DNA from: Escherichia phage phiEco32
DNA length: 64,000 nucleotides
Sequence record: NC_010324.1
Strand: one strand, 5' to 3'
Part shown: positions 2,860 through 61,542 of the stretch, piece by piece
How positions within the stretch are numbered: the first letter of the stretch is position 1
Layout of the letters: each line of letters opens with the position of its first letter
Notes under the pieces: generated by a model
Databases searched by the model: none
Told to the model about the DNA's origin: nothing
The model's input: only the letters and a program-made list of their open reading frames with translations
Position numbers and translations under genes: made by a program

Positions 2860-5800
2860 ATGGCGCTGTATCCAATAAAGTCATTAGGTGCTGTAGGCGT
2901 TATCGCTGATCAGGCTCCGACAGACTTAGCTCCTAATGCTTTCACTAATGCTATAAATGCTCGATTTGTGGAGCAGAGAGTATTTAAGACGGGGGGCAAT
3001 GCCCCTCTTTCTTATGTAGATGAAGATAAGGATTTAACCCCTCTGTCTTTCATTTCTATGCCTTTCGATTATTATAGCGCAGGTAATAGCTTTCTTGTTG
3101 TAGGTACGGATAAGAAGTTATATAAACTGACAGATGAAAGCTTGACTGATATTAGCCGTAAGGTTGCTACAGTCACTAAAAAGGCTTCTGCCTCAATTAA
3201 GATTTATCCGGTTGTTTCTCAGATTGTTCCTAAAGAATCAACCATCTCAATGAACTTCAATCAGACCAAGAATCTAGAGGTTTCTCTTCTTCCTGCTGAT
3301 GCCAACAATACCGATCTTGTTTGGGAGGTTAGTAACTCATCTTATGGAAGTATTACAGTAGACCCTAGTGACTCTAAACTTGCTACTCTAACATCTTTTG
3401 AGAAAGAGGGTAATCTTGTAGTAACTATCTCTACTGCCAATGAATCCGTAGTGGCTCAGATTGCTGTTAATATCATAGATGGTGATTCAGGCATCTTCTT
3501 GAGTCAAGATACTGTTACAATTCGTAAGGGAGGGACTACTACTCTCACGGCTGTTACTGGCAAGACTCCTGTAACTTGGTCCAGCAGTAACGCTTCTATT
3601 GTATCCGTAACCCCTAACGCCAACTCTTTAACTGCTGTCATTACAGCGAATGGAGAAGGTAATGTAACAATCACTGCTGATAACGGGACTAAGACTGCTT
3701 CTTGTGAGATTGTTTCTATCCCTCAGATTGATAGTATCTCTTTAAGCCAGTCAGATGTTACTGTGAGTAGAGGTTCTCAGTACATCTTAACTGCTACCCT
3801 TTCTCCTGCTAACGCCCCTAATCAAAATATTACTTGGACCTCTTCTAATCCAAATATTGCAACAGTATCAGGGACTAGCACACAAGGGACGATCAACGCT
3901 CTACTTGCTGGTTTTACTGAGATTACAGCTACCACTGAAGAAGGCAACAGGATTGCTGTCTGTACTGTACGTGTAGATTTAGCTGGGAGGACAATGAGAA
4001 CAAGTGCTATGGCATTTGCCGCTCCTGTGTCAGAGTCAGTAGAAACTCAAGAGGAAGAAGTAGTAACTCCTCCTGAAAGTGAAGAGACGGTTTATTTTGC
4101 TGAGCCTACATCTGGTATTGATACATCAGGGATGTACGAAGGTAATAACTTCTACGATTACTCTAACGTGAATGACATTGAAGGTTTTGCAAGAGCTTCT
4201 TTACTGGCAACCCCTCTGTCATCTGTAACCTTAGATATTGTCAGCGCTTCTCTTGATGTTGGTGAAGAGATTGTCATTACAGCCACAGCTTCTCCAGAAG
4301 GTGAGTACTCTTATCAGTGGTCTGTTGATAAAACTGGTTATGTTTCTACAACCTCAGTTACTGGTAAATCTATCAAACTGGTTGCTCTTCGTAAAGGAGA
4401 GATTAACGTAACATGTACTGTCAGTCAGATGACTCAGAAGGATTACGATGCTTTTGATGACTACCCTTGGTATCACGCTGTTATCTCTAACTGTGCAGTT
4501 GCTACAACTCACTATGAAACTCCTCAGGTAAAAGAATTCGAATCAGAATACTTTGTAGACCTTCCGGGGTGGGGTGAGCAAACAGTTGTTGATAATGATG
4601 GAAACCCTTCAGTCAAGAAGTTTAACTGGAAATGTGAGAGAGTAAGATCTTTTAACAACCGTCTTTTTGCTCTGAATATGAGAGAGGCTAACGCTTCTGG
4701 TGTTACCACTAACTACCCTCTTCGTCTTCGTTGGTCTAACTTTGCCAACGAGAACAAGGCTCCTACACTGTGGGATGACTTTGCCTATGATCGAGTTGTG
4801 TCTTCGGACTTAGCTTCTAACATCGTAGGGCAGACTCAGGCTCTAGAGAATGGGTATGCTGGTTACATCGACTTAGCAGATTCTAATGGTAGCTTGATTG
4901 ATATCCTACCTCTTAAAGATTACTTGTTCGTTTATACAGAGTTTGAAACGTATATTGGTTCTCCGACTAATAACACGTACCAACCTCTAATGTTCAAGAA
5001 GCTCTTTAACGACTCTGGTATCCTTGCTCCCGAGTGTGTGGTTGAAGTAGAAGGTAGTCATTTCGTAGTTACTCAGAACGATGTAATCTTACACAACGGT
5101 GCAACCAAGAAGTCAATTGCATCTAACCGTGTTAAGAATATGTTGATTAATGAGGTGTGTCTGGTTAATCCTCTAGCAACTCGAGTACACTTGCATCAGG
5201 ATAAGAAAGAAGTTTGGGTTCTCTATGTAGGACCGGGGGAGCCAAAAGAAAGCTTCGCTTGTACTAAAGCTGCTGTATGGAACTACGAGTTTGATACTTG
5301 GTCTTTCCGTACTATCCCATATGCTCAGTGTATTGGTCTGGTTGATCCTCCTGTTTTAGAAAGAGGTCCAATCTGGTCTGACTTCCAAGAAATCACTTGG
5401 GATGACCCATCTATTAAAGAACTCGTTTGGAGAAAGGATGCAACAAACTTTAGACAGAGGGTTACGATAGTAGGTTCATTCTTGAAGGGATTCTATCAAG
5501 TGGATGTAGGTGCTCTTGATTATTTCTATGACAGGCTAAATGATGTTGTTATAGAGAAGCCTCTGGAAATGAGGTTGGAGAGGACTGGTATAGATTTTGA
5601 TAATGTGACTAATGAGTGGAATCAGAAGCATATTAACAGGTTCCGGCCTCAGACAACCGGTTCAGGTACTTACATATTTGAAGCTGGTGGTAGTCAATTC
5701 TCAAATGAATACGGACACCCACACACATCTAAGACATATACGATCGGTGTTGACAGGCACGTCTCGGTGAGACTGAACCATCCATACCTTTTCTATAATG

Positions 5801-22271: not shown

Positions 22272-23018
22272 TTAGAATGGGCTATCGTTGTCGTCTTCGT
22301 AAGTAGAAGCAGGCTCTTTATCAATCGTAGGGATTGAAGGAGTAGCTTCTTTCTGCTCTGTTTCAGAAGCACGAGTAATTTCACGACCAGCCAGAGGCAT
22401 GTTCTTAGCGTCATTAGCTTGAGTAAGCAGGTTGCGCTGGAACGGGAACATCAGTTGATATGATGCTACGTTCTCATCGGTTTCAGCATACGGTTCGAAG
22501 AATACCAGAGGACTACGAGCTTCACCAACTGCTGCACGATATTTGGTTGGGATTGGAGAAATGGTCTTGATGGAGTTTTTAACTTCACCAGCTTTGTTAG
22601 TGTAAGAGTTAACCAGAATGTTAACAGGCTGGCCTAACAGAACATCCTTGAACCAAGACAGATCGCCTTTCAGTGCTTGAATACTTGGGTCAATCATCTT
22701 GCAAAGATCAAGAATACCAGAGTTCTTAGCTCGTGGGTTTACATCATAGCTCTTGAACTGGCAAGCCGGACGTGGTTCTAATGCCTTACCATCGGAATCT
22801 TTACCAGTAGCATCAACACCAATCAGCTCGAAAGCCAAATCCATACGGAAAGCCGGATTCTTAGGAGTCACTGCTTTGGTCTTCGGGTCAATCCAAGGGT
22901 CACGATTGTGAACACCCAAACCTACTACACGAACGATACGTGCTTCGTACTCACCATCAGGGATTACATCGTAGTTGGATTTACGGGAAGCAGTTGCGAT
23001 AGTTGGAATCATAGACAT
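22272..23018 (-). CDS. single-stranded DNA-binding protein candidate (T7 gp2.5-like)
   Basis: 248 aa; acidic C-terminal tail ending ...YEDDNDSPF (acidic tail with terminal Phe is the hallmark of gp2.5-type SSBs); preceded by a 400-bp promoter-like intergenic region. Confidence 0.45.
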   Translation of the reverse strand: MSMIPTIATASRKSNYDVIPDGEYEARIVRVVGLGVHNRDPWIDPKTKAVTPKNPAFRMDLAFELIGVDATGKDSDGKALEPRPACQFKSYDVNPRAKNSGILDLCKMIDPSIQALKGDLSWFKDVLLGQPVNILVNSYTNKAGEVKNSIKTISPIPTKYRAAVGEARSPLVFFEPYAETDENVASYQLMFPFQRNLLTQANDAKNMPLAGREITRASETEQKEATPSIPTIDKEPASTYEDDNDSPF

Positions 23019-23077
23019 ATTTTAATTTCCTTATTTAATTTGAAAGATTGTTGCTCTCTTTGAGCGGTTATGTATAG

Positions 23078-23086
23078 TATACATTA
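23078..23086 (-). promoter_or_regulatory. candidate phage promoter element TAATGTATA (minus strand)
   Basis: Exact 9-mer on the minus strand ~60 nt upstream of the SSB start codon. Confidence 0.3.
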
Positions 23087-23149
23087 CGCTTATACCGATA
23101 AGAGTACTATATAATATAAGTATCTTTGGTAGTAGATATATCACACTAG

Positions 23150-23158
23150 TAATGTATA
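23150..23158 (+). promoter_or_regulatory. TAATGTATA element in plus orientation inside the 23.0-23.4 kb intergenic region
   Basis: Exact 9-mer (TAATGTATATAT) pointing away from the SSB gene; no plus-strand ORF downstream; could drive an antisense or small RNA. Confidence 0.25.
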
Positions 23159-23594
23159 TATTGTATAGCTGATAAAGTTATTGCAGGCTTGTATATTGGG
23201 CAATTCATAGAATCCCTTGCAAGTACCGAAGGGCAGGAGCCACCTGCGAGATAAAAATAGAGAATTAAGGAATCCTTGATTTAGGTTGTAGGGACTCCTA
23301 GGGACTTTGATTCTCTATTTAAAAGAATAATAATTACTTATTACCTAAATAATTAACTAACTTACTTAAACCAAATTCAATTAGAATAGATAAAAAGATT
23401 ATTCCTAAGAAAGCTAAGAAGTAAATAATATAAGTTACCATTCAAGTAAACCTTTAAAGTTAGTTTGTTCTACTATCCTCTGATAACGAAGATTAGAATC
23501 AGCTTGTTTCTTTAACATCTCATTATATTGATCTCTGATAGAGTCTTTATAAACTACAGGTTCTTTAAATACTGAGATCTTCTTTTTCTCAGAG

Positions 23595-23810
23595 TTAGAT
23601 AGTACATCCATCACAGGTAAGATCTCCGAGAAGGGACAGTGATAACAAACGAGACTGCTCATCGCTATACAGTTGATCAATCTCTTCTTTAAGTTTTGCC
23701 AACTCAATGAAATTGATAAGTTGACCATGTTCAAGACAGTCTGTTTTTAGTATAAATAAAACTTCAGCGTCTGTTGAATCTTCACTTGAATATTTATCAA
23801 TGTATTCCAT
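23595..23810 (-). CDS. hypothetical small acidic protein
   Basis: 71 aa; AGGAG RBS 5 nt upstream of ATG. Confidence 0.4.
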   Translation of the reverse strand: MEYIDKYSSEDSTDAEVLFILKTDCLEHGQLINFIELAKLKEEIDQLYSDEQSRLLSLSLLGDLTCDGCTI

Positions 23811-24302
23811 TTTTACTCCTATTAATTATGACCAAGATTTAACTTTTACTTCGACGTATGTTTTAACTTCACCTTTCAAGACTTCCTGAGAAGCATTTGC
23901 ACTTTCCTCAGAGTGATGTACAACGGTGATCTCTTTCTTTCCAATCTTATAAGTGTGAATCCAAATCATACTTCTTCCTCATATTCCCAATTTCTTTCAT
24001 AATACCCAGAGTTGTAGTTTAGGGCGCACTTCTCGGCCTCTTCTATGTCGTCAGTGTTTAGGATATTTACCCATCCTCCAACTTCATCAAAACCTTCTTC
24101 TACTTCGTTAAACCATACACTATACTTTTTCATCGAGAAGTTCTTCCCCAATCTTTTACATAGCATCGACCGTTAACCCACTTTGTCTCTGACTTAAATT
24201 CCTGAGACAATCTCACTTCACAGTCTTCTCTACTGGCATCTCCTCCGATATCAATCAGATACAGGAATAGAGCTATACCTAAAGCCCAAAGAATTATCTT
24301 CT

Positions 24303-55464: not shown

Positions 55465-55663
55465 ATTATTTACCCTTTATCAGAGATTAAAAGTAATATT
55501 ATTTAAGTAAGTTAAATTTAGTAAACTTATTTTCTAAGAAATTTTCAAAGGGTCTATATACAGAGCATTACCCATAGTCCCAGAATACTACCATCTTTTT
55601 CAATAAATTTACTAAGTGGTTGGTTTATAAAGGAATTTAGTTTGTCAAATCTGGCACTAGTGA

Positions 55664-56053
55664 TTATTCCCTAGAGCTATTATCGAACACTAAATCACCA
55701 CAATACATAGGATTGGCATACCATTTTGGCACCCCTTCGCTCTTACTCTGAAAGTAAGTCCCACTGTACAGCGGAACGTAATTCTTCTTAAGGGCACGTT
55801 TAGCAAGTCGCTCGCTTTCTCCAATGGCTTGCTTAGTCATCGGATTTTTATCACGAATCAGCTTTACATAACGTTTATAAGGTTTCTCCTGTTTTAATAG
55901 TACCGGAATCCACTCAAACTGGTTCTTTTGTCTTATCACCTGTTCAGCGGTCAGTTTTCGTTGGGCCATTCTATTTATCACGGTATCCGCAACTAAAGCC
56001 TTACATGCGGTTGGCTGATTCCCTGCCTCATAATAAATAGTCAATGTCAACAT
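55664..56053 (-). CDS. cell-wall hydrolase, SleB/CwlJ-like (Hydrolase_2-type)
   Basis: 129 aa; TIYYEAGNQPTACKALVADTVINRM parallels the SleB signature IYGEARGE...VA-VI-NR. Confidence 0.45.
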   Translation of the reverse strand: MLTLTIYYEAGNQPTACKALVADTVINRMAQRKLTAEQVIRQKNQFEWIPVLLKQEKPYKRYVKLIRDKNPMTKQAIGESERLAKRALKKNYVPLYSGTYFQSKSEGVPKWYANPMYCGDLVFDNSSRE

Positions 56054-56125
56054 TAGCTGTGCCGTTGTTATCAGAACTTGCTACCTCCTGTTTTGTTGTT
56101 TCAATAAACACCCTCGAAAAGATGC

Positions 56126-56155
56126 TTATAGAAACACCCCTCCCTTTCGGGAGAG
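56126..56155 (-). terminator. terminator hairpin downstream of the YadA-like gene (minus strand)
   Basis: On minus strand ccucuccc-gaaa-gggagggg (one G-U) followed by uguuucua...cuuuuc. Confidence 0.4.
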
Positions 56156-56163
56156 GCACTATC

Positions 56164-56844
56164 TTACCACTCGTAACTTACACCAGCGCCCAGAACAGCG
56201 TCACTCTCTGAAGTCATTGCCACTGATGCTTTAGTTACTACGTTTTCATTGAAACGAGCACTAACACCAATAGCAAGAGCAGATTCACCATCGTAAGCAC
56301 CTACCCCAGCACCAACAGAGAAAGCAGATCCTTGACTTACTTGCGGGATGTTAGCCATTGCAGCCACGCCAGAAATACCAGCAGAGGCATGATCACGGTT
56401 ACGGTCTACTTGTTTTTGCAAAGAAGCAAAACGTTTGTTGGTGGATTGTTCCAGAGCTTTGATGGATTTGGCGTTAGCATTAACGGCAGACATATCTGCA
56501 TCTTTACCATTTTTACCATTTAATCCGTCAACGCCATTCAAACCTGCTGCACCAGTTAGGCCAGTTTCGCCTTTCTTACCATCTGCACCAGAATCGCCTT
56601 TTTCACCTTGAGCGCCATCTTTACCATCAATGCCGTCTTTACCATCAATGCCATTAGCGCCAGTGTCGCCTTTCTCTCCCTGATCACCTTTTTCACCTTT
56701 AAACCAATCTCCGATACCGCAACCATTGGTAGATTGACCTACACCACAACCTCCATTGCCATTGCCATTGTTTCCACTTTTAGCAAAAACAGGCGATGCC
56801 ATTACGGACAGAGCTAGGATTGATGATAATACAATTGCTTTCAT
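56164..56844 (-). CDS. YadA-like trimeric autotransporter-type protein with collagen-like Gly-X-Y repeats
   Basis: Start set to internal ATG (MKAIVLSSILALSVMASPVFA signal peptide). About 20 Gly-X-Y triplets (GEKGDQGEKGDTGANGIDGKDGIDGKDG...). C-terminal ~70 aa (AGISGVAAMANIPQ...AIGVSARFNENVVTKASVAMTSESDAVLGAGVSYEW) matches a YadA-type anchor. Confidence 0.6.
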   Translation of the reverse strand: MKAIVLSSILALSVMASPVFAKSGNNGNGNGGCGVGQSTNGCGIGDWFKGEKGDQGEKGDTGANGIDGKDGIDGKDGAQGEKGDSGADGKKGETGLTGAAGLNGVDGLNGKNGKDADMSAVNANAKSIKALEQSTNKRFASLQKQVDRNRDHASAGISGVAAMANIPQVSQGSAFSVGAGVGAYDGESALAIGVSARFNENVVTKASVAMTSESDAVLGAGVSYEW

Positions 56845-57062
56845 TTCATAGATTCCTATACAGTAGACATAAAAAAGCCCCAGCCGTAGCCGGGGCAAAC
56901 CTGAAAGCAACACATGACCGTTGCTATAAACACACTCGCAAATGCACTTACAGCAACGCAAAAAAGCCGCTCAAAGGCGGCTATGCGGAAGCTTCAAATG
57001 GGGAGAGGGCACGACGCTACAGAAAGAGCGTCACAGTACTAAAAGAGGGGGCTATATTCCTA

Positions 57063-57506
57063 CTACTTAACCCTTGCCTCTTTGATGGGGTCAATGTATT
57101 TCTCAACGCCCCACTTGTGTTTACTATCTGCGTAGAAAACATCAGGTGCACACTGGCTTGTCTTAGGGAAAGCCTGAGGGTCTTTCGTGCTACCCTTAAA
57201 CTTCTGTTTACCACGGGTGCGACCATTACAGAAGATTTCTAACTTCTTCTCTTCTTCTGTTTTAGCGCCCCCGCTCTGTAACAAAGAACGTTTATGATCA
57301 GCTAACAACAACGCATCAGCACGATGGACACGATGGCCTACACGTTTTGCCACACTGGAAGGAACAAGGGATTCAGCCTCAGCCTTTGCAGCACGACGTT
57401 TTAAACTACGCTTACTAACGTGATTAGTTGCCTTCGGTTTCTCTTTCTCTAGTTCAGAGATAGCAAAACAACGCCCGCCCTTCATGCTGATTTTAGATTT
57501 AGCCAC
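57063..57506 (-). CDS. hypothetical basic protein
   Basis: 147 aa, Lys/Arg-rich; followed by a hairpin and the conserved AGTACTAAAAGAGG element. Confidence 0.4.
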   Translation of the reverse strand: MAKSKISMKGGRCFAISELEKEKPKATNHVSKRSLKRRAAKAEAESLVPSSVAKRVGHRVHRADALLLADHKRSLLQSGGAKTEEEKKLEIFCNGRTRGKQKFKGSTKDPQAFPKTSQCAPDVFYADSKHKWGVEKYIDPIKEARVK

Positions 57507-57575
57507 AATCTTATTCCTTTTAGTGATAAGTTATATCGGGCAAGCCCATCAAGTCGATAGGCTTGAACAAATAAC

Positions 57576-57785
57576 TTAATCGAGTAAACTAAATGACTTC
57601 CAACTACGTATTAATATTTCGCCGTCATCCATCCTTACTGATATTTTAAGTAATTTCTTATTGCAACTGCTAACCGTTACGATCGCACCAGTAACACACT
57701 TACCCTTATTATTGTAAAGGTACATTGCACGACGGCCTAACAGACGAGATGGCGCTTTCTTAAATTCTGAAATGTTAGTGATCAT
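57576..57785 (-). CDS. hypothetical small protein (possible distant family member)
   Basis: 69 aa; similar size and beta-rich composition to the 49.6-55.2 kb family, but the shared motif is not clear. Confidence 0.3.
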   Translation of the reverse strand: MITNISEFKKAPSRLLGRRAMYLYNNKGKCVTGAIVTVSSCNKKLLKISVRMDDGEILIRSWKSFSLLD

Positions 57786-58332: not shown

Positions 58333-59232
58333 TTATGCCGCCTGACGTGCCGCCATAATTTCAGCCGCTTTACGCAATACTTCTTCCTCTTCTGCTTTCG
58401 CCGCTTGTTCGGTACGGGTAGCAACCGTTGAAGAGATACGACCGCGCAGGCTTTCTAACTTCTCCTGCATAGTTGCAATGGTCTTTTCCATTTCATCAGC
58501 GTATGAATCGAGTGATTCTAATTCCTTGCTTGATGCGTTCATCAGATAATCATCTGAGATCGCTACCGTCGAGGCCGTGACTTTCTTGATGAGTGAATCA
58601 AAGGACTTTTTAACCTTCCCAACTTCTTCACTCAGGGCGATAGTGTTATCGCTAGTTGCGCCGTTGCGCTCATCAGCCAGTAATTTGGCTTCAATACGGA
58701 TTGCATTCAAGCGTTCAACTAAAGCGTAAATATCCTGATTAAAATCTTCCTTGTTTTTCGCCGGAATTTGCAGGTGTGCCGCCACGTTGTCATTACAACC
58801 CTTGTAAAAGTTAGGGTTATCGACTTCAATTTCACGGCCTAAAGCAAAGTTTTCGAAAGCGTTTGACCAGCGAGCGCGGTTTTGTTCCATTTTGGCCTTA
58901 ATTTGCGCTTCTTTCGCGTCTTCTTTAGCTTTCGCCTCACCTTCCAGATTAATCCACTTTTTACGACCATTTGCCGCATCGGTGTTAAACTTGATAGGAG
59001 TTAAGAAAGTAATTGCAGTGGCAATCACATCCATATCACGAAAACGTTCAGTTAACAAGAAGTCAACCGCCGTCTGCAATACGTCCAGCTTTTTACCGTT
59101 ACTGCGGAAGTGCTGTAAGTGCCCTAACAGGAAGTTAGAAACATCTTGTTTGATCGCCGCGTTATTGCTACGAATGTTGTTAGCCAGTGCGTTAAAACCA
59201 GATTCGTTAACCAGAGTAAAGATTTTAGCCAT
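58333..59232 (-). CDS. hypothetical coiled-coil protein
   Basis: Start set to ATG 59232 (MAKIFTL...) with AAGGTGA SD 5 nt upstream; GC content visibly higher than the phage average. Confidence 0.5.
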   Translation of the reverse strand: MAKIFTLVNESGFNALANNIRSNNAAIKQDVSNFLLGHLQHFRSNGKKLDVLQTAVDFLLTERFRDMDVIATAITFLTPIKFNTDAANGRKKWINLEGEAKAKEDAKEAQIKAKMEQNRARWSNAFENFALGREIEVDNPNFYKGCNDNVAAHLQIPAKNKEDFNQDIYALVERLNAIRIEAKLLADERNGATSDNTIALSEEVGKVKKSFDSLIKKVTASTVAISDDYLMNASSKELESLDSYADEMEKTIATMQEKLESLRGRISSTVATRTEQAAKAEEEEVLRKAAEIMAARQAA

Positions 59233-60052
59233 GATATTCACCTTTCAATTGTAAGGGCGCTATTGCCCCGCTCTCTATGAGCTTGTTTAAGTCACTATTA
59301 ACTTAACTATAACCACTCGTTGTTAAGTAGTTATAGGTAAGCGGGGCGGTCTTATCAGGAGTTAACCTTGCCGCCCCCTTATCCGTGATGTTTCATCTGG
59401 TATCTTTAATTAGTCGCTATAAACGAAGCCGACCTGATAGCGATGATCAATCATCACAATAAGGCAGTGCGTCCGACTCTAATTAGTTACGTTTATTGTA
59501 ACCGTCGGCAATATCGTCTACTTTGCTTTCGCTCTCGCCTATCCTTTTGTATCAACTCTCAATCACTAGCCATCGCCCACAACGGGATGCTATTGTGAAA
59601 GAGTCATTGACCGTCTAATGTTCTGACGTTTTATATCTTTCGGCAAGTTTACTACATAAACCGACTATGTACTTTCATCTTGTGATGAATCTCAAGCCGT
59701 TCACATCGTAAACGTTCACACTAAACCTTATTGTTAAATAGCAATTTGCCACTTTTTAACCACTCCCCGCCGCCCTCAATTGGGCGTTAATTCTTCGGGC
59801 TTGCCTACCCTGATTAACTTCTTTCACTGTAGCGCCTTGTTAGCGATGGCCGCCGCTACCCTTAACCGTGGGCGATTAGCTTAAGCCTTTGCGTGCACTC
59901 AATGAATCCGTTTATCAGTGGTGACGTTTCCAGTAAGGGAATGTAAAACTGTTTACCCTGATAATTTAGGGAGTCTTACGCCGTTTTATCTGGTATGCTT
60001 TCCGATGGTTATTATCATCAAGCATATTCAACCGATATAGGAGAATGTTTAA

Positions 60053-60720
60053 ATTATTAAAGAGCGGTAAATCTATCAGTGTGCTTTCTCACACTATGCA
60101 ACTGTTAGCCGTTGTTACGCTTTCCTTAAGCGGTGATTTGCTTAAGTGTGCTCATTATGAATCATGCTGTTTTAGCTGTCAACCACTTTTTTAATCTTTT
60201 TCGTCGTTCCCGCTGTTGGGAGGATATATCAATCAGCTATGTTTGATTGAAGATTAAGCGGCAAGGCTTAAACTTATGATTCATATTTTTAAAGAGCGGT
60301 TACTACATTCACAGCTTAACACATCGTGTTAGCTTGTCAAACTCTTTTTTATCATCTTCTTTTATTCCGTTCCCTTATCTCGCTTGAATCTATGCGAAAA
60401 GGCAAGATGATAAGTCTGATTTGTCTTTTAGGAATCTAGTGCACTTTCAAGCATCGACCATTTGAAAGTATCGAACAAATGAGGCTTATTTTGTTGCTCA
60501 TCGTCCGCCTGTTTCACGTATGAATCAGGAATCAATTCTAGCGGTCAACTAAGCGCCTTATAGTAATGACGTTACCGCCACCTGTAAGACAAATCATATT
60601 TTTAAAGAGCGGGATGTTTTGATTCATCGCTGAATGAGTGCTCATTATGTATCAGGCTTTTTCCGGTGTCAATACTCTTTTTTAAGTATTTTCACTTTCT
60701 AGCCTGATTTTTAAAGAGCG
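60053..60720. repeat. four dispersed copies of a 14-15-nt repeat (A)TTTTTAAAGAGCG(G) within an ORF-free region
   Basis: Copies at about 60053-60067 (variant ttattaaagagcgg), 60285-60299, 60598-60612 and 60707-60720; two are preceded by tgattcat/aaatcat; irregular spacing (232, 313, 109 nt). Confidence 0.5.
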
Positions 60721-61176
60721 TAGCACTTCGTTGTGCGTCCTACCGTCGGTATTCCTACCGCTCCCCGTTGAAGCCTTTTACCGTGATGCTAATCACCTAT
60801 CAGGGAATCTTGTTGCTTGTTGCTTACTGCTTACTACGGGATTCATATTACTATACAGGAAAACCCTGTCAATACCCTTTTTTCAAACTATTTTACATCT
60901 CATTGTTTTATAAAGGAATTTATTTTAGGGATGATAGGAACTACAAAGAAATCAGGATATAGAGGAACGGGTGCGCGTGATACATCACAAGAAACGGCTT
61001 GTAAAGCAATAATAAGCGTCCTAAAACGCATCACAACGAGCTAAAAGGGAGTAAGGTATACAATCACCTTAGAAAAGAAAAAAGCCTCTTAATGAGGCTT
61101 ACAGGAAGGATTTAAAGCATCAGATAGATTATGACCATAGGCATGACCACGGCACAATACAGGAGAAAGATTAAGC

Positions 61177-61542
61177 CTATGGATTTACACATTGACCGTT
61201 ACCGGATGCCATTTCATTCATGGACTCATCAAAGAGCGTTAACGATGAGCGCATCAAGTGATCGACCGTGATTTGTTTACCAGTGGATTCATTTACCAGT
61301 TGAACAGTTTTATCATATGATTGCACATGATCGAAATCATTTACATGCAAAATAATAACTTTAGGTGACTTTTTACCGGTTTCATAGTTTTCTACAAGAT
61401 AAGTACATTGCAAGCCGTCAACCGTAGCAGGGGAAAATGTTGCAGCCTTAACGCTACCCATAGCCGATAGCAGGACACCTAACAGAAGAACGACCAGAAA
61501 GAAGCCTACAACCGTTTTAACGACGAATTTAATAAACCACAT
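61177..61542 (-). CDS. secreted/membrane protein (N-terminal signal-anchor)
   Basis: 121 aa; MWFIKFVVKTVVGFFLVVLLLGVLLSAMGSVKA. Confidence 0.45.
   Translation of the reverse strand: MWFIKFVVKTVVGFFLVVLLLGVLLSAMGSVKAATFSPATVDGLQCTYLVENYETGKKSPKVIILHVNDFDHVQSYDKTVQLVNESTGKQITVDHLMRSSLTLFDESMNEMASGNGQCVNP

Follow-up and report, generated by a model that had tools for sequence, protein, structure and literature searches.

The trimeric autotransporter adhesins (TAAs) YadA of Yersinia, Hia of Haemophilus and AtaA of Acinetobacter have a signal peptide, a helical stalk that runs into a membrane anchor of four strands per chain, and a terminal aromatic residue. The same features are found in the product of a minus-strand gene of Escherichia phage phiEco32, located in the 64,000-nt stretch of record NC_010324.1 analysed here (the window). 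The phage protein is far smaller than these adhesins (226 aa) and joins a proline-free collagen-like rod to a 28-residue Cys-loop tip, and its gene lies on a virulent phage, not on a bacterial chromosome or virulence plasmid. The gene very probably encodes a minimal trimeric autotransporter (type Vc), and the fibre is probably displayed on infected cells and not part of virions. The explanation that fits best overall, held with moderate confidence, is that of a type Vc fibre that coats the surface of the infected cell and alters access to it or makes it stick.

Phage-borne TAAs with a YadA anchor have a precedent in the Eib proteins, immunoglobulin (Ig)-binding TAAs of E. coli that are encoded on lambdoid prophages and alter the host cell surface. 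One of them, EibG, is mentioned in PMC4352079. The Eib genes differ in that they belong to temperate prophages and lysogens express them, and their passengers are coiled-coil and Ig-binding, without collagen repeats. An uninterrupted, surface-displayed Gly-X-Y rod with repeat-number polymorphism is also known from Scl1 and Scl2 of Streptococcus, Lcl of Legionella and BclA of Bacillus, and the repeat region of the phage protein gives weak NCBIfam and PDB matches. Those proteins are anchored by LPXTG or in the exosporium and their rods contain proline, whereas the phage protein has a beta-barrel anchor and a proline-free rod.

A third comparison is with morons and exclusion genes, such as lambda lom and bor, T5 llp, and T4 imm and sp. 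Like these, the autotransporter gene is accessory, terminator-bounded and placed between conserved genes, with a product predicted here to reach the envelope of the infected cell, and its early position resembles that of the T4 and T5 exclusion genes. The moron and exclusion genes have no sequence or fold relation to the autotransporter, and no promoter was identified for the autotransporter gene. Lytic phages are usually thought to change the host surface only by receptor destruction or by small lipoproteins such as T5 Llp. An outer-membrane fibre made during the lytic cycle would, if the explanation holds, represent a different kind of control over access to the infected cell and perhaps over where it bursts.

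The autotransporter belongs to a known and annotated yet uncharacterised gene family. Deposited names include 'YadA-like protein' (Escherichia phage EcP-vB/EcM-vB1), 'adhesin' (MN03) and 'agglutinating adhesin' (Salmonella phages FSL SP-058/076). A paper of 2013 had already drawn attention to the yadA homologue of phiEco32 and FSL SP-058/076 and described it as not near the tail genes (PMC3728262), and a 2023 survey found YadA_anchor to be the commonest 'virulence' auxiliary metabolic gene (AMG) of N4-like viruses (PMC10654107). What is new here is the anatomy of the cassette, including a relic and the three states of its slot, the variation of the rod in repeat length, the export signature across the family together with its consistent non-structural context, and the rebuttal of an argument from GC content.

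The assignment to the trimeric autotransporters is carried by profile and fold comparisons of the C-terminal part. An earlier note, made from the DNA letters alone, had proposed a YadA-like anchor at the C-terminus, a signal peptide and about 20 Gly-X-Y triplets, and all three proposals were borne out. The note had named the lack of a significant match to YadA-anchor profiles as a refutation, and such a match was obtained. The Pfam family YadA_anchor (PF03895) matches over its full length and far above threshold (profile 1-60/60 on aa 167-226; E 3.4e-19, with 69.1 bits where the cut-off is 22.7), and a sequence search of the PDB returned the YadA anchor 2lme at 2e-8 as well as Hia (2gr8). The AlphaFold2 (AF2) model, a monomer computed from an alignment of 118 homologues, has a low overall predicted local distance difference test score (pLDDT) of 51 and is poor outside the C-terminal half; it places a helix at residues 112-164 (pLDDT ~54-77) and strands at 175-184, 187-197, 202-211 and 216-224, with pLDDT 62-77 across the helix-plus-strand part. 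All of the top five PDB matches found for it by Foldseek are TAA anchors (Hia 3emo/2gr7/2gr8, AtaA 9vnj and YadA 2lme), at E-values of 1.7e-7 to 6e-4, target TM-scores of 0.67-0.86 and root-mean-square deviations of 1.7-2.8 Å.

The N-terminus MKAIVLSSILALSVMASPVFA is a predicted Sec signal peptide with a Lys n-region, a hydrophobic core and V-F-A at positions -3 to -1; signal peptides were judged heuristically, by eye and with a simple hydropathy script. Its ATG is preceded at 9 nt by AGGA (56857-56854). The rod of 22 uninterrupted triplets scores above the cut-off of Pfam Collagen (PF01391; E 4e-9, 36.5 bits against 27.2). It is free of proline, with K, D, E, N and T frequent at the X and Y positions, and an 18-nt unit coding for GIDGKD occurs twice in it (56614-56654). 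As a triple helix, 22 triplets would extend ~19 nm, to which the helix of ~50 residues would add ~8 nm. Residues M118, V121, A125, I128, F139, L142, V146 and N149 of the helix follow a heptad spacing when read by eye, and D115-M118, N149, A153 and G156 are invariant or nearly so among the aligned homologues, N149 being invariant. A Pfam scan of the 226-aa protein found Collagen and YadA_anchor only, and no YadA head, neck, Hep_Hag or stalk repeats; since the passenger is a collagen-like rod, the protein is an architectural variant of the TAAs. PADLOC gave no match to a defence system.

The hallmarks of the protein recur throughout a large family. A search of 5.8 billion proteins gave 1,111 matches at E <= 1e-5, of which the best 120 were examined for architecture and 118 of these were aligned. 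Nearly all of the best 120 combine Collagen and YadA_anchor, and many are encoded on contigs of 70-72 kb; one match, a metagenomic protein (P0001), also has 226 aa and is 99% identical to the window's protein. Among the 118 aligned homologues the signal-peptide pattern is present in 111 (the other seven are truncated start calls), a terminal Trp in every one, and exactly two cysteines, both in the N-terminal tip, in 106, while each has a single uninterrupted Gly-X-Y run of 12-57 triplets. That these hallmarks have been kept in more than 100 homologues of 40-60% identity, drawn from several phage lineages, argues for purifying selection on the family.

Length of the rod and type of the tip are the variable parts. 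The Kuravirus copies are 85-100% identical over their aligned parts and their C-terminal halves are near-identical, with rods of 12, 18, 22, 27, 28, 33, 36, 37 or 39 triplets; two tip types occur among them and a larger tip is found in N4-like phages. The window's allele is distinct only in tip type and repeat number. Copies of the 18-nt GIDGKD unit number two in the window, eight in SkaterBoy and four in EcP-vB, whose rods have 22, 36 and 37 triplets, respectively, and from these sequences the variation in rod length looks like the result of slippage of this unit. Anchors of this type were found by tblastn in 62 phage records, which include phages of Salmonella, Aeromonas, Yersinia, Pantoea, Erwinia, Cronobacter and Citrobacter, jumbo phages and one member of the Ackermannviridae.

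The genomic surroundings of the homologues are replication or early genes in every lineage checked (five unrelated lytic lineages, Kuravirus included). In the N4-like phage FSL SP-058 the gene is flanked by an RNA polymerase subunit gene and dUTPase, and in a related 72-kb contig it lies near helicase and TerC/TelA genes. Yersinia phage P778 (90 kb) carries it between nrdD and nrdG. In Erwinia phage RF1 and in 45-kb contigs it directly follows DNA polymerase A, on the strand opposite the tail genes.

The window is, on sequence comparison, a phiEco32/SU10-like virulent podophage of the genus Kuravirus, as judged by its megablast relatives and their taxonomy. A megablast search with 55600-57600 gave 98 phage records, nearly all of Escherichia or Shigella phages; SkaterBoy_Bas90, phiEc_1, EK5 and Ec3-ASingh are the closest over the full query (98.4-98.5% identity), and SU10, SGF2, 172-1 and MN03 are classified in Gordonclarkvirinae; Kuravirus. 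The early genes of SU10, like those of phiEco32, are coding sequences (CDS) 69-125, with three sigma-70 promoters in the spacer of CDS 120-121 (PMC4281155), and the late structural cluster runs in the opposite direction to the early and middle genes (PMC8948821). The slot occupied by the autotransporter gene corresponds to the interval SU10_0116 / SU10_0117, so that the gene belongs to the early cluster; the structural genes are far away and the late genes are read from the other strand. Three near-consensus sigma-70 promoter-like sites lie on the minus strand 3.3-4 kb upstream of it, in an ORF-poor spacer of ~2 kb (59250-61200), and are presumably the counterparts of the SU10/phiEco32 early promoters. 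Synteny with SU10 and phiEco32 (PMC4281155) suggests that the autotransporter gene would be expressed early.

These surroundings bear on the proposal, made by GenBank and PHROG labels ('tail protein', 'tail fibers protein', 'receptor binding protein') and offered as one option by the earlier note, that the protein is a fibre or tail component of the virion. The protein matches PHROG 26246, 'tail protein', at 1e-102 as well as several tail-fibre PHROGs, although the latter matches are confined to the low-complexity Gly-X-Y part; collagen-like repeats are known from genuine phage fibres, and 'YadA domain' structural proteins have been detected in cyanophage virions (PMC9146016). Against this, the predicted cleavable signal peptide would route the protein out of the cytoplasm, where virions are assembled, a BAM (beta-barrel assembly machinery)-dependent barrel anchor would be unable to fold there, and the conserved Cys pair suits an oxidising compartment. 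The gene is on the opposite strand, within the early cluster, and in the four other lineages checked it lies outside the structural operon. About 80% of Kuraviruses lack it, and SU10, which has been studied structurally and whose particle proteins were analysed by mass spectrometry, makes complete virions without it. A virion component is therefore highly improbable, and the 'tail protein' and 'tail fibre' labels of GenBank and PHROGs most plausibly reflect annotation that was propagated because of the Gly-X-Y region. The other option of the earlier note, a change to the surface of the infected cell, agrees with the signal peptide, the barrel anchor, the Cys pair, the early cluster and the non-structural context in five lineages.

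Some of these labels are attached to frames that are themselves artefacts. The GenBank 'tail protein' Bas90_0117 (305 aa; 4565-5482) uses an upstream TTG start and reads through both terminators, and the 'tail protein' Bas91_0115 (44 aa; 4472-4606) is a spurious frame across an empty slot. A 265-aa ORF of the window that starts at TTG 56961 (extension 56845-56961) is the same artefact; it was rejected, as it crosses two terminator hairpins and the homologues begin at the Met of 56844. Bas91_0115 was likewise considered as a gene remnant in a phage without the cassette and discarded, being merely a spurious upstream frame through the terminators.

Comparison among the Kuraviruses defines the gene as part of an exact 773-bp cassette of leader, gene and downstream terminator (Table 1). 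The alignments of SU10 and LorandFenyves_Bas91 with the window end at 56094 and resume at 56868, with ~5 nt in place of the 773 bp, and the flanks are 97-99% identical among relatives. The upstream boundary falls just past the T tract of the 56896-56877 terminator, a hairpin that phages without the cassette retain. Among the 98 records the slot holds the autotransporter gene in 14 (12 phages), a helix-turn-helix (HTH) gene in six (four phages: SGF2, 172-1, SR02 and pEC-N1203-2Af.1) and neither in ~78. The HTH gene encodes a 105-aa XRE-type protein (HTH_37, PF13744, 9.5e-17) with weak matches to HipB-like antitoxins, possibly a regulator or an antitoxin mimic; it is located at 2068-2385 of the 172-1 segment and at ~2087-2380 of the SGF2 segment, where it is unannotated. 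In the HTH versions the leader and the terminator remain, the latter with a mutated hairpin, and so does a mutated form of the autotransporter ORF's last 21 nt (GGTGTAAGTTACAAATAGTAA vs GGTGTAAGTTACGAGTGGTAA); the 21-nt relic was read behind the HTH stop codon in SGF2 and 172-1. The persistence of leader, 3′ relic and terminator implies that the HTH gene replaced a pre-existing autotransporter ORF.

The cassette resembles a moron in being a discrete insertion between conserved genes with its own hairpin terminator (with an imperfect U tract). The earlier note had described a horizontally acquired module bounded by hairpin terminators. The presence or absence of an exact 773-bp cassette and the alternative cargo in its slot support the acquisition, and the three hairpins are real and stable, the U tract of the downstream one being imperfect. 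The second upstream hairpin comes directly after the point where translation of the preceding early gene (57063-57506) stops, and a scan of 2.3 kb found seven terminator-like sites, against 2.1 +/- 1.5 in shuffles.

The GC content, which the note had taken as a sign of foreign origin, is in contrast no evidence of it. The gene has a GC content of 0.456 against 0.421 for the window and ranks seventh of 67 open reading frames (ORFs), yet its amino-acid composition combined with the window's codon usage predicts 0.475, and its GC at third codon positions (GC3), 0.279, is the lowest of the 67, with GGT, GCT and AAA predominating; Gly and Ala codons account for the excess. Nor did the raised GC claimed for the neighbours up to about 59.2 kb survive except in part: in 1-kb windows 57-60 kb is average (0.423-0.430), while 10-15 kb reaches 0.45-0.475. 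The neighbouring ORFs are mildly GC-richer (0.464 and 0.446) and are core genes of all relatives, outside the mobile piece. What survives of the claim is that two core early genes, 58333-59241 (-) and 57063-57506 (-), exceed the composition-based prediction, with residuals of +0.03 and +0.02; their products fall in the unknown-function PHROGs 13018 and 11641.

The patchy distribution (~12 of roughly 85 phages) and the replacement of the ORF in four phages, which left a decaying relic, could be read to mean that the gene is selfish or decaying cargo, or, as the genome papers suggest, a 'virulence AMG' relevant only to bacterial pathogenicity. The literature merely speculates on virulence (PMC3728262, PMC10654107). 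Decay is at odds with the intactness of all 12 Kuravirus copies, with the 99-100% identity of the C-terminal 149 residues in eight of the 13 tblastn matches and with the conservation of the hallmarks over the wider family, and for a virulent phage, whose host is dead after a single cycle, conversion of the host to virulence is implausible as a selective benefit. A recent origin by capture from E. coli was rejected, since blastn found no DNA homologue of the gene in 5,426 complete E. coli genomes, which also speaks against selfish cargo. With plasmid-borne TAAs the similarity is limited to the anchor, at 54.5% identity for three unnamed YadA-domain proteins and 35% for the named adhesin Saa. 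Cargo of either kind is accordingly improbable. Because most Kuraviruses do without the gene, its benefit would be conditional.

A route to a type Vc fibre on the infected cell can be proposed from the established biology of YadA, Hia and Eib. The 226-aa chain would be exported by Sec, BAM would assemble three chains into one 12-strand barrel, and the passenger would thread outwards from its C- to its N-terminus. As the passenger emerges in this order, the helix would register the three chains and nucleate, or zip, the collagen-like rod. The tip cysteines would be oxidised outside the cytoplasm, and the six of each trimer might, speculatively, form a knot. The position of the gene in the early cluster, downstream of early sigma-70 promoters, suggests that assembly of the fibre on the outer membrane would take place during infection, from an accessory cassette that starts past an existing terminator and brings its own.

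What such a fibre would do is less certain. The leading guess, a tentative one, is shielding or exclusion, by which fewer further phages would adsorb to infected cells and their debris. Such masking would fit a gene in an early position, a slot with arms-race-like turnover and a tip as tiny as this one. The same molecule, displayed in the same way, might instead act as an adhesin or auto-aggregation factor through which infected cells stick to neighbours or surfaces and burst near new hosts or inside an aggregate, a role that is nearly as likely. All TAAs characterised so far act as adhesins or autoagglutinins (YadA, Saa, Eib and UpaG), the collagen-like Lcl of Legionella promotes aggregation in a manner dependent on repeat number, and the anchor is matched by the plasmid adhesin Saa. 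The variable tip, with its two Kuravirus types and larger N4-like form, and a stalk whose length varies through two, four or eight copies of the 18-nt repeat follow the pattern of adhesins that reach beyond the lipopolysaccharide. For a binding head, however, a 28-residue Gly-rich tip is very small, homotypic aggregation would chiefly cluster cells that are already infected, and the high turnover in an accessory hot spot that also takes an antitoxin-like HTH gene looks more like arms-race cargo.

Several points weigh against a fibre on infected cells, with either role. The literature searched holds no functional study or experiment on any phage homologue, only annotation-level mentions and, for virulence, speculation (PMC3728262, PMC10654107). 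Most Kuraviruses lack the gene. The Gly-X-Y rod is free of proline, so formation of a triple helix is not assured, although charge pairs and the flanking trimerisers could stabilise it, and the structural model is of a monomer with low overall confidence. Two strong terminators separate the early promoters from the gene, a scan of the 218-nt upstream spacer (56845-57062) found no sigma-70 promoter and none was convincing by eye, and the gp36-like candidate promoter of the gene is a one-mismatch match at chance level. With two terminators in between and no promoter found, both expression of the gene and its early timing are putative.

That candidate, TACTGTATA at 56865-56857 in the leader, differs at one conserved position from the element tAATGTAtA of the phage sigma factor gp36, the consensus being taken from PMC8948821. 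It was not taken as a middle or late promoter, as one-mismatch matches occur in the window at the chance rate (20 found against 20.4 expected) and the conserved position differs. The leader motif TGTATAGGAAT is not enriched in the window as a recurrent signal.

More broadly, it is conceivable, if doubtful, that several unrelated virulent lineages (Kuravirus, N4-like, the 90-kb Yersinia phage, the 45-kb phages, jumbo phages and Ackermannviridae) share a phage-specific class of mini-autotransporters with a proline-free, tunable collagen stalk. Such proteins would use Sec and BAM to coat the infected cell within minutes, as a transient surface conversion that keeps competing or sibling phages from adsorbing to infected cells and debris, or else ties infected cells to fresh hosts. 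Early-gene hot spots would be the sites at which their gene, in a cassette bounded by terminators, is exchanged. Many coliphages that are therapeutic candidates, and Salmonella phages, carry members of the family under the labels 'tail fibre', 'adhesin' or 'virulence gene', and for this reason a correct reading matters for annotation and for judging how safe phage products are. The system lends itself to direct tests: the BASEL collection contains both a phage with the cassette, SkaterBoy (Bas90), and one without it, Bas91, the flanks of the two being near-identical. With a collagen rod that a coiled coil and a beta barrel nucleate, the protein would also offer a natural scaffold for protein engineering.

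Table 1. Features of the autotransporter locus and its upstream region, in window coordinates.
Feature	Position	Strand	Basis or detail
Cassette (leader, gene, downstream terminator), 773 bp	56095..56867		Exact indel vs SU10 and LorandFenyves_Bas91
CDS, 226-aa trimeric-autotransporter-like protein	56164..56844; ATG 56844, stop codon 56166-56164	-	ORF reading; Pfam YadA_anchor and Collagen
Signal peptide (predicted), aa 1-21, MKAIVLSSILALSVMASPVFA, predicted cleavage before Lys22 (KSG)	56782..56844	-	Sequence pattern
Small Gly/Asn-rich tip with two cysteines, C33 and C42, aa 22-49	56698..56781	-	Sequence
Collagen-like stalk, 22 uninterrupted Gly-X-Y triplets, aa 50-115	56500..56697	-	Sequence; Pfam Collagen
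Helical (coiled-coil-like) stalk, aa 116-166, opening with the conserved junction GKDADM..VNAN	56347..56499	-	AF2 helix 112-164
YadA-type membrane anchor, aa 167-226, four beta strands, C-terminal GAGVSYEW	56167..56346	-	Pfam PF03895, AF2, Foldseek
Leader, common with the alternative HTH cargo, ATGyCTAyTGTATAGGAAT	56845..56867	-	Comparison with HTH-carrying phages
Upstream intrinsic-terminator hairpin, 8-bp stem then T6, -18.6 kcal/mol, z -3.1	56896-56877	-	Stem scan and folding energy
Second upstream terminator hairpin, then T6, -13.9 kcal/mol, z -2.7	56982-56965	-	Stem scan and folding energy
Downstream hairpin, GAAA loop, -17.5 kcal/mol, z -3.4, broken/weak U tract UGUUUCUAU	56156-56139	-	Stem scan and folding energy
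Sigma-70 promoter-like site	60182-60154	-	TTGACA-17-CATAAT
Sigma-70 promoter-like site	60672-60644	-	TTGACA-17-CATAAT
Sigma-70 promoter-like site	60872-60845	-	TTGACA-16-TAATAT

Between the two upstream terminators (56897-56948) is a further small slot of variable content, where phage 172-1 carries a different segment of 138 nt (2436-2573) with a 40-aa ORF that has no Pfam match. Another terminator-like hairpin, with a 12-bp stem, follows the first early gene (58310-58283). Directly downstream of the autotransporter gene in the early cluster, a SleB-like cell-wall hydrolase is encoded at 55664-56053 (-) (Pfam Hydrolase_2, 1.7e-7). Its gene is conserved across Kuraviruses with or without the cassette, and its location, distant from the late lysis genes, is unusual for a muralytic enzyme. 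Elsewhere in the window, the most AT-rich kilobase (23000-24000, GC 0.315) contains four matches to the gp36 promoter element TAATGTATA inside 100 bp (23068-23167), on both strands, two of them exact.

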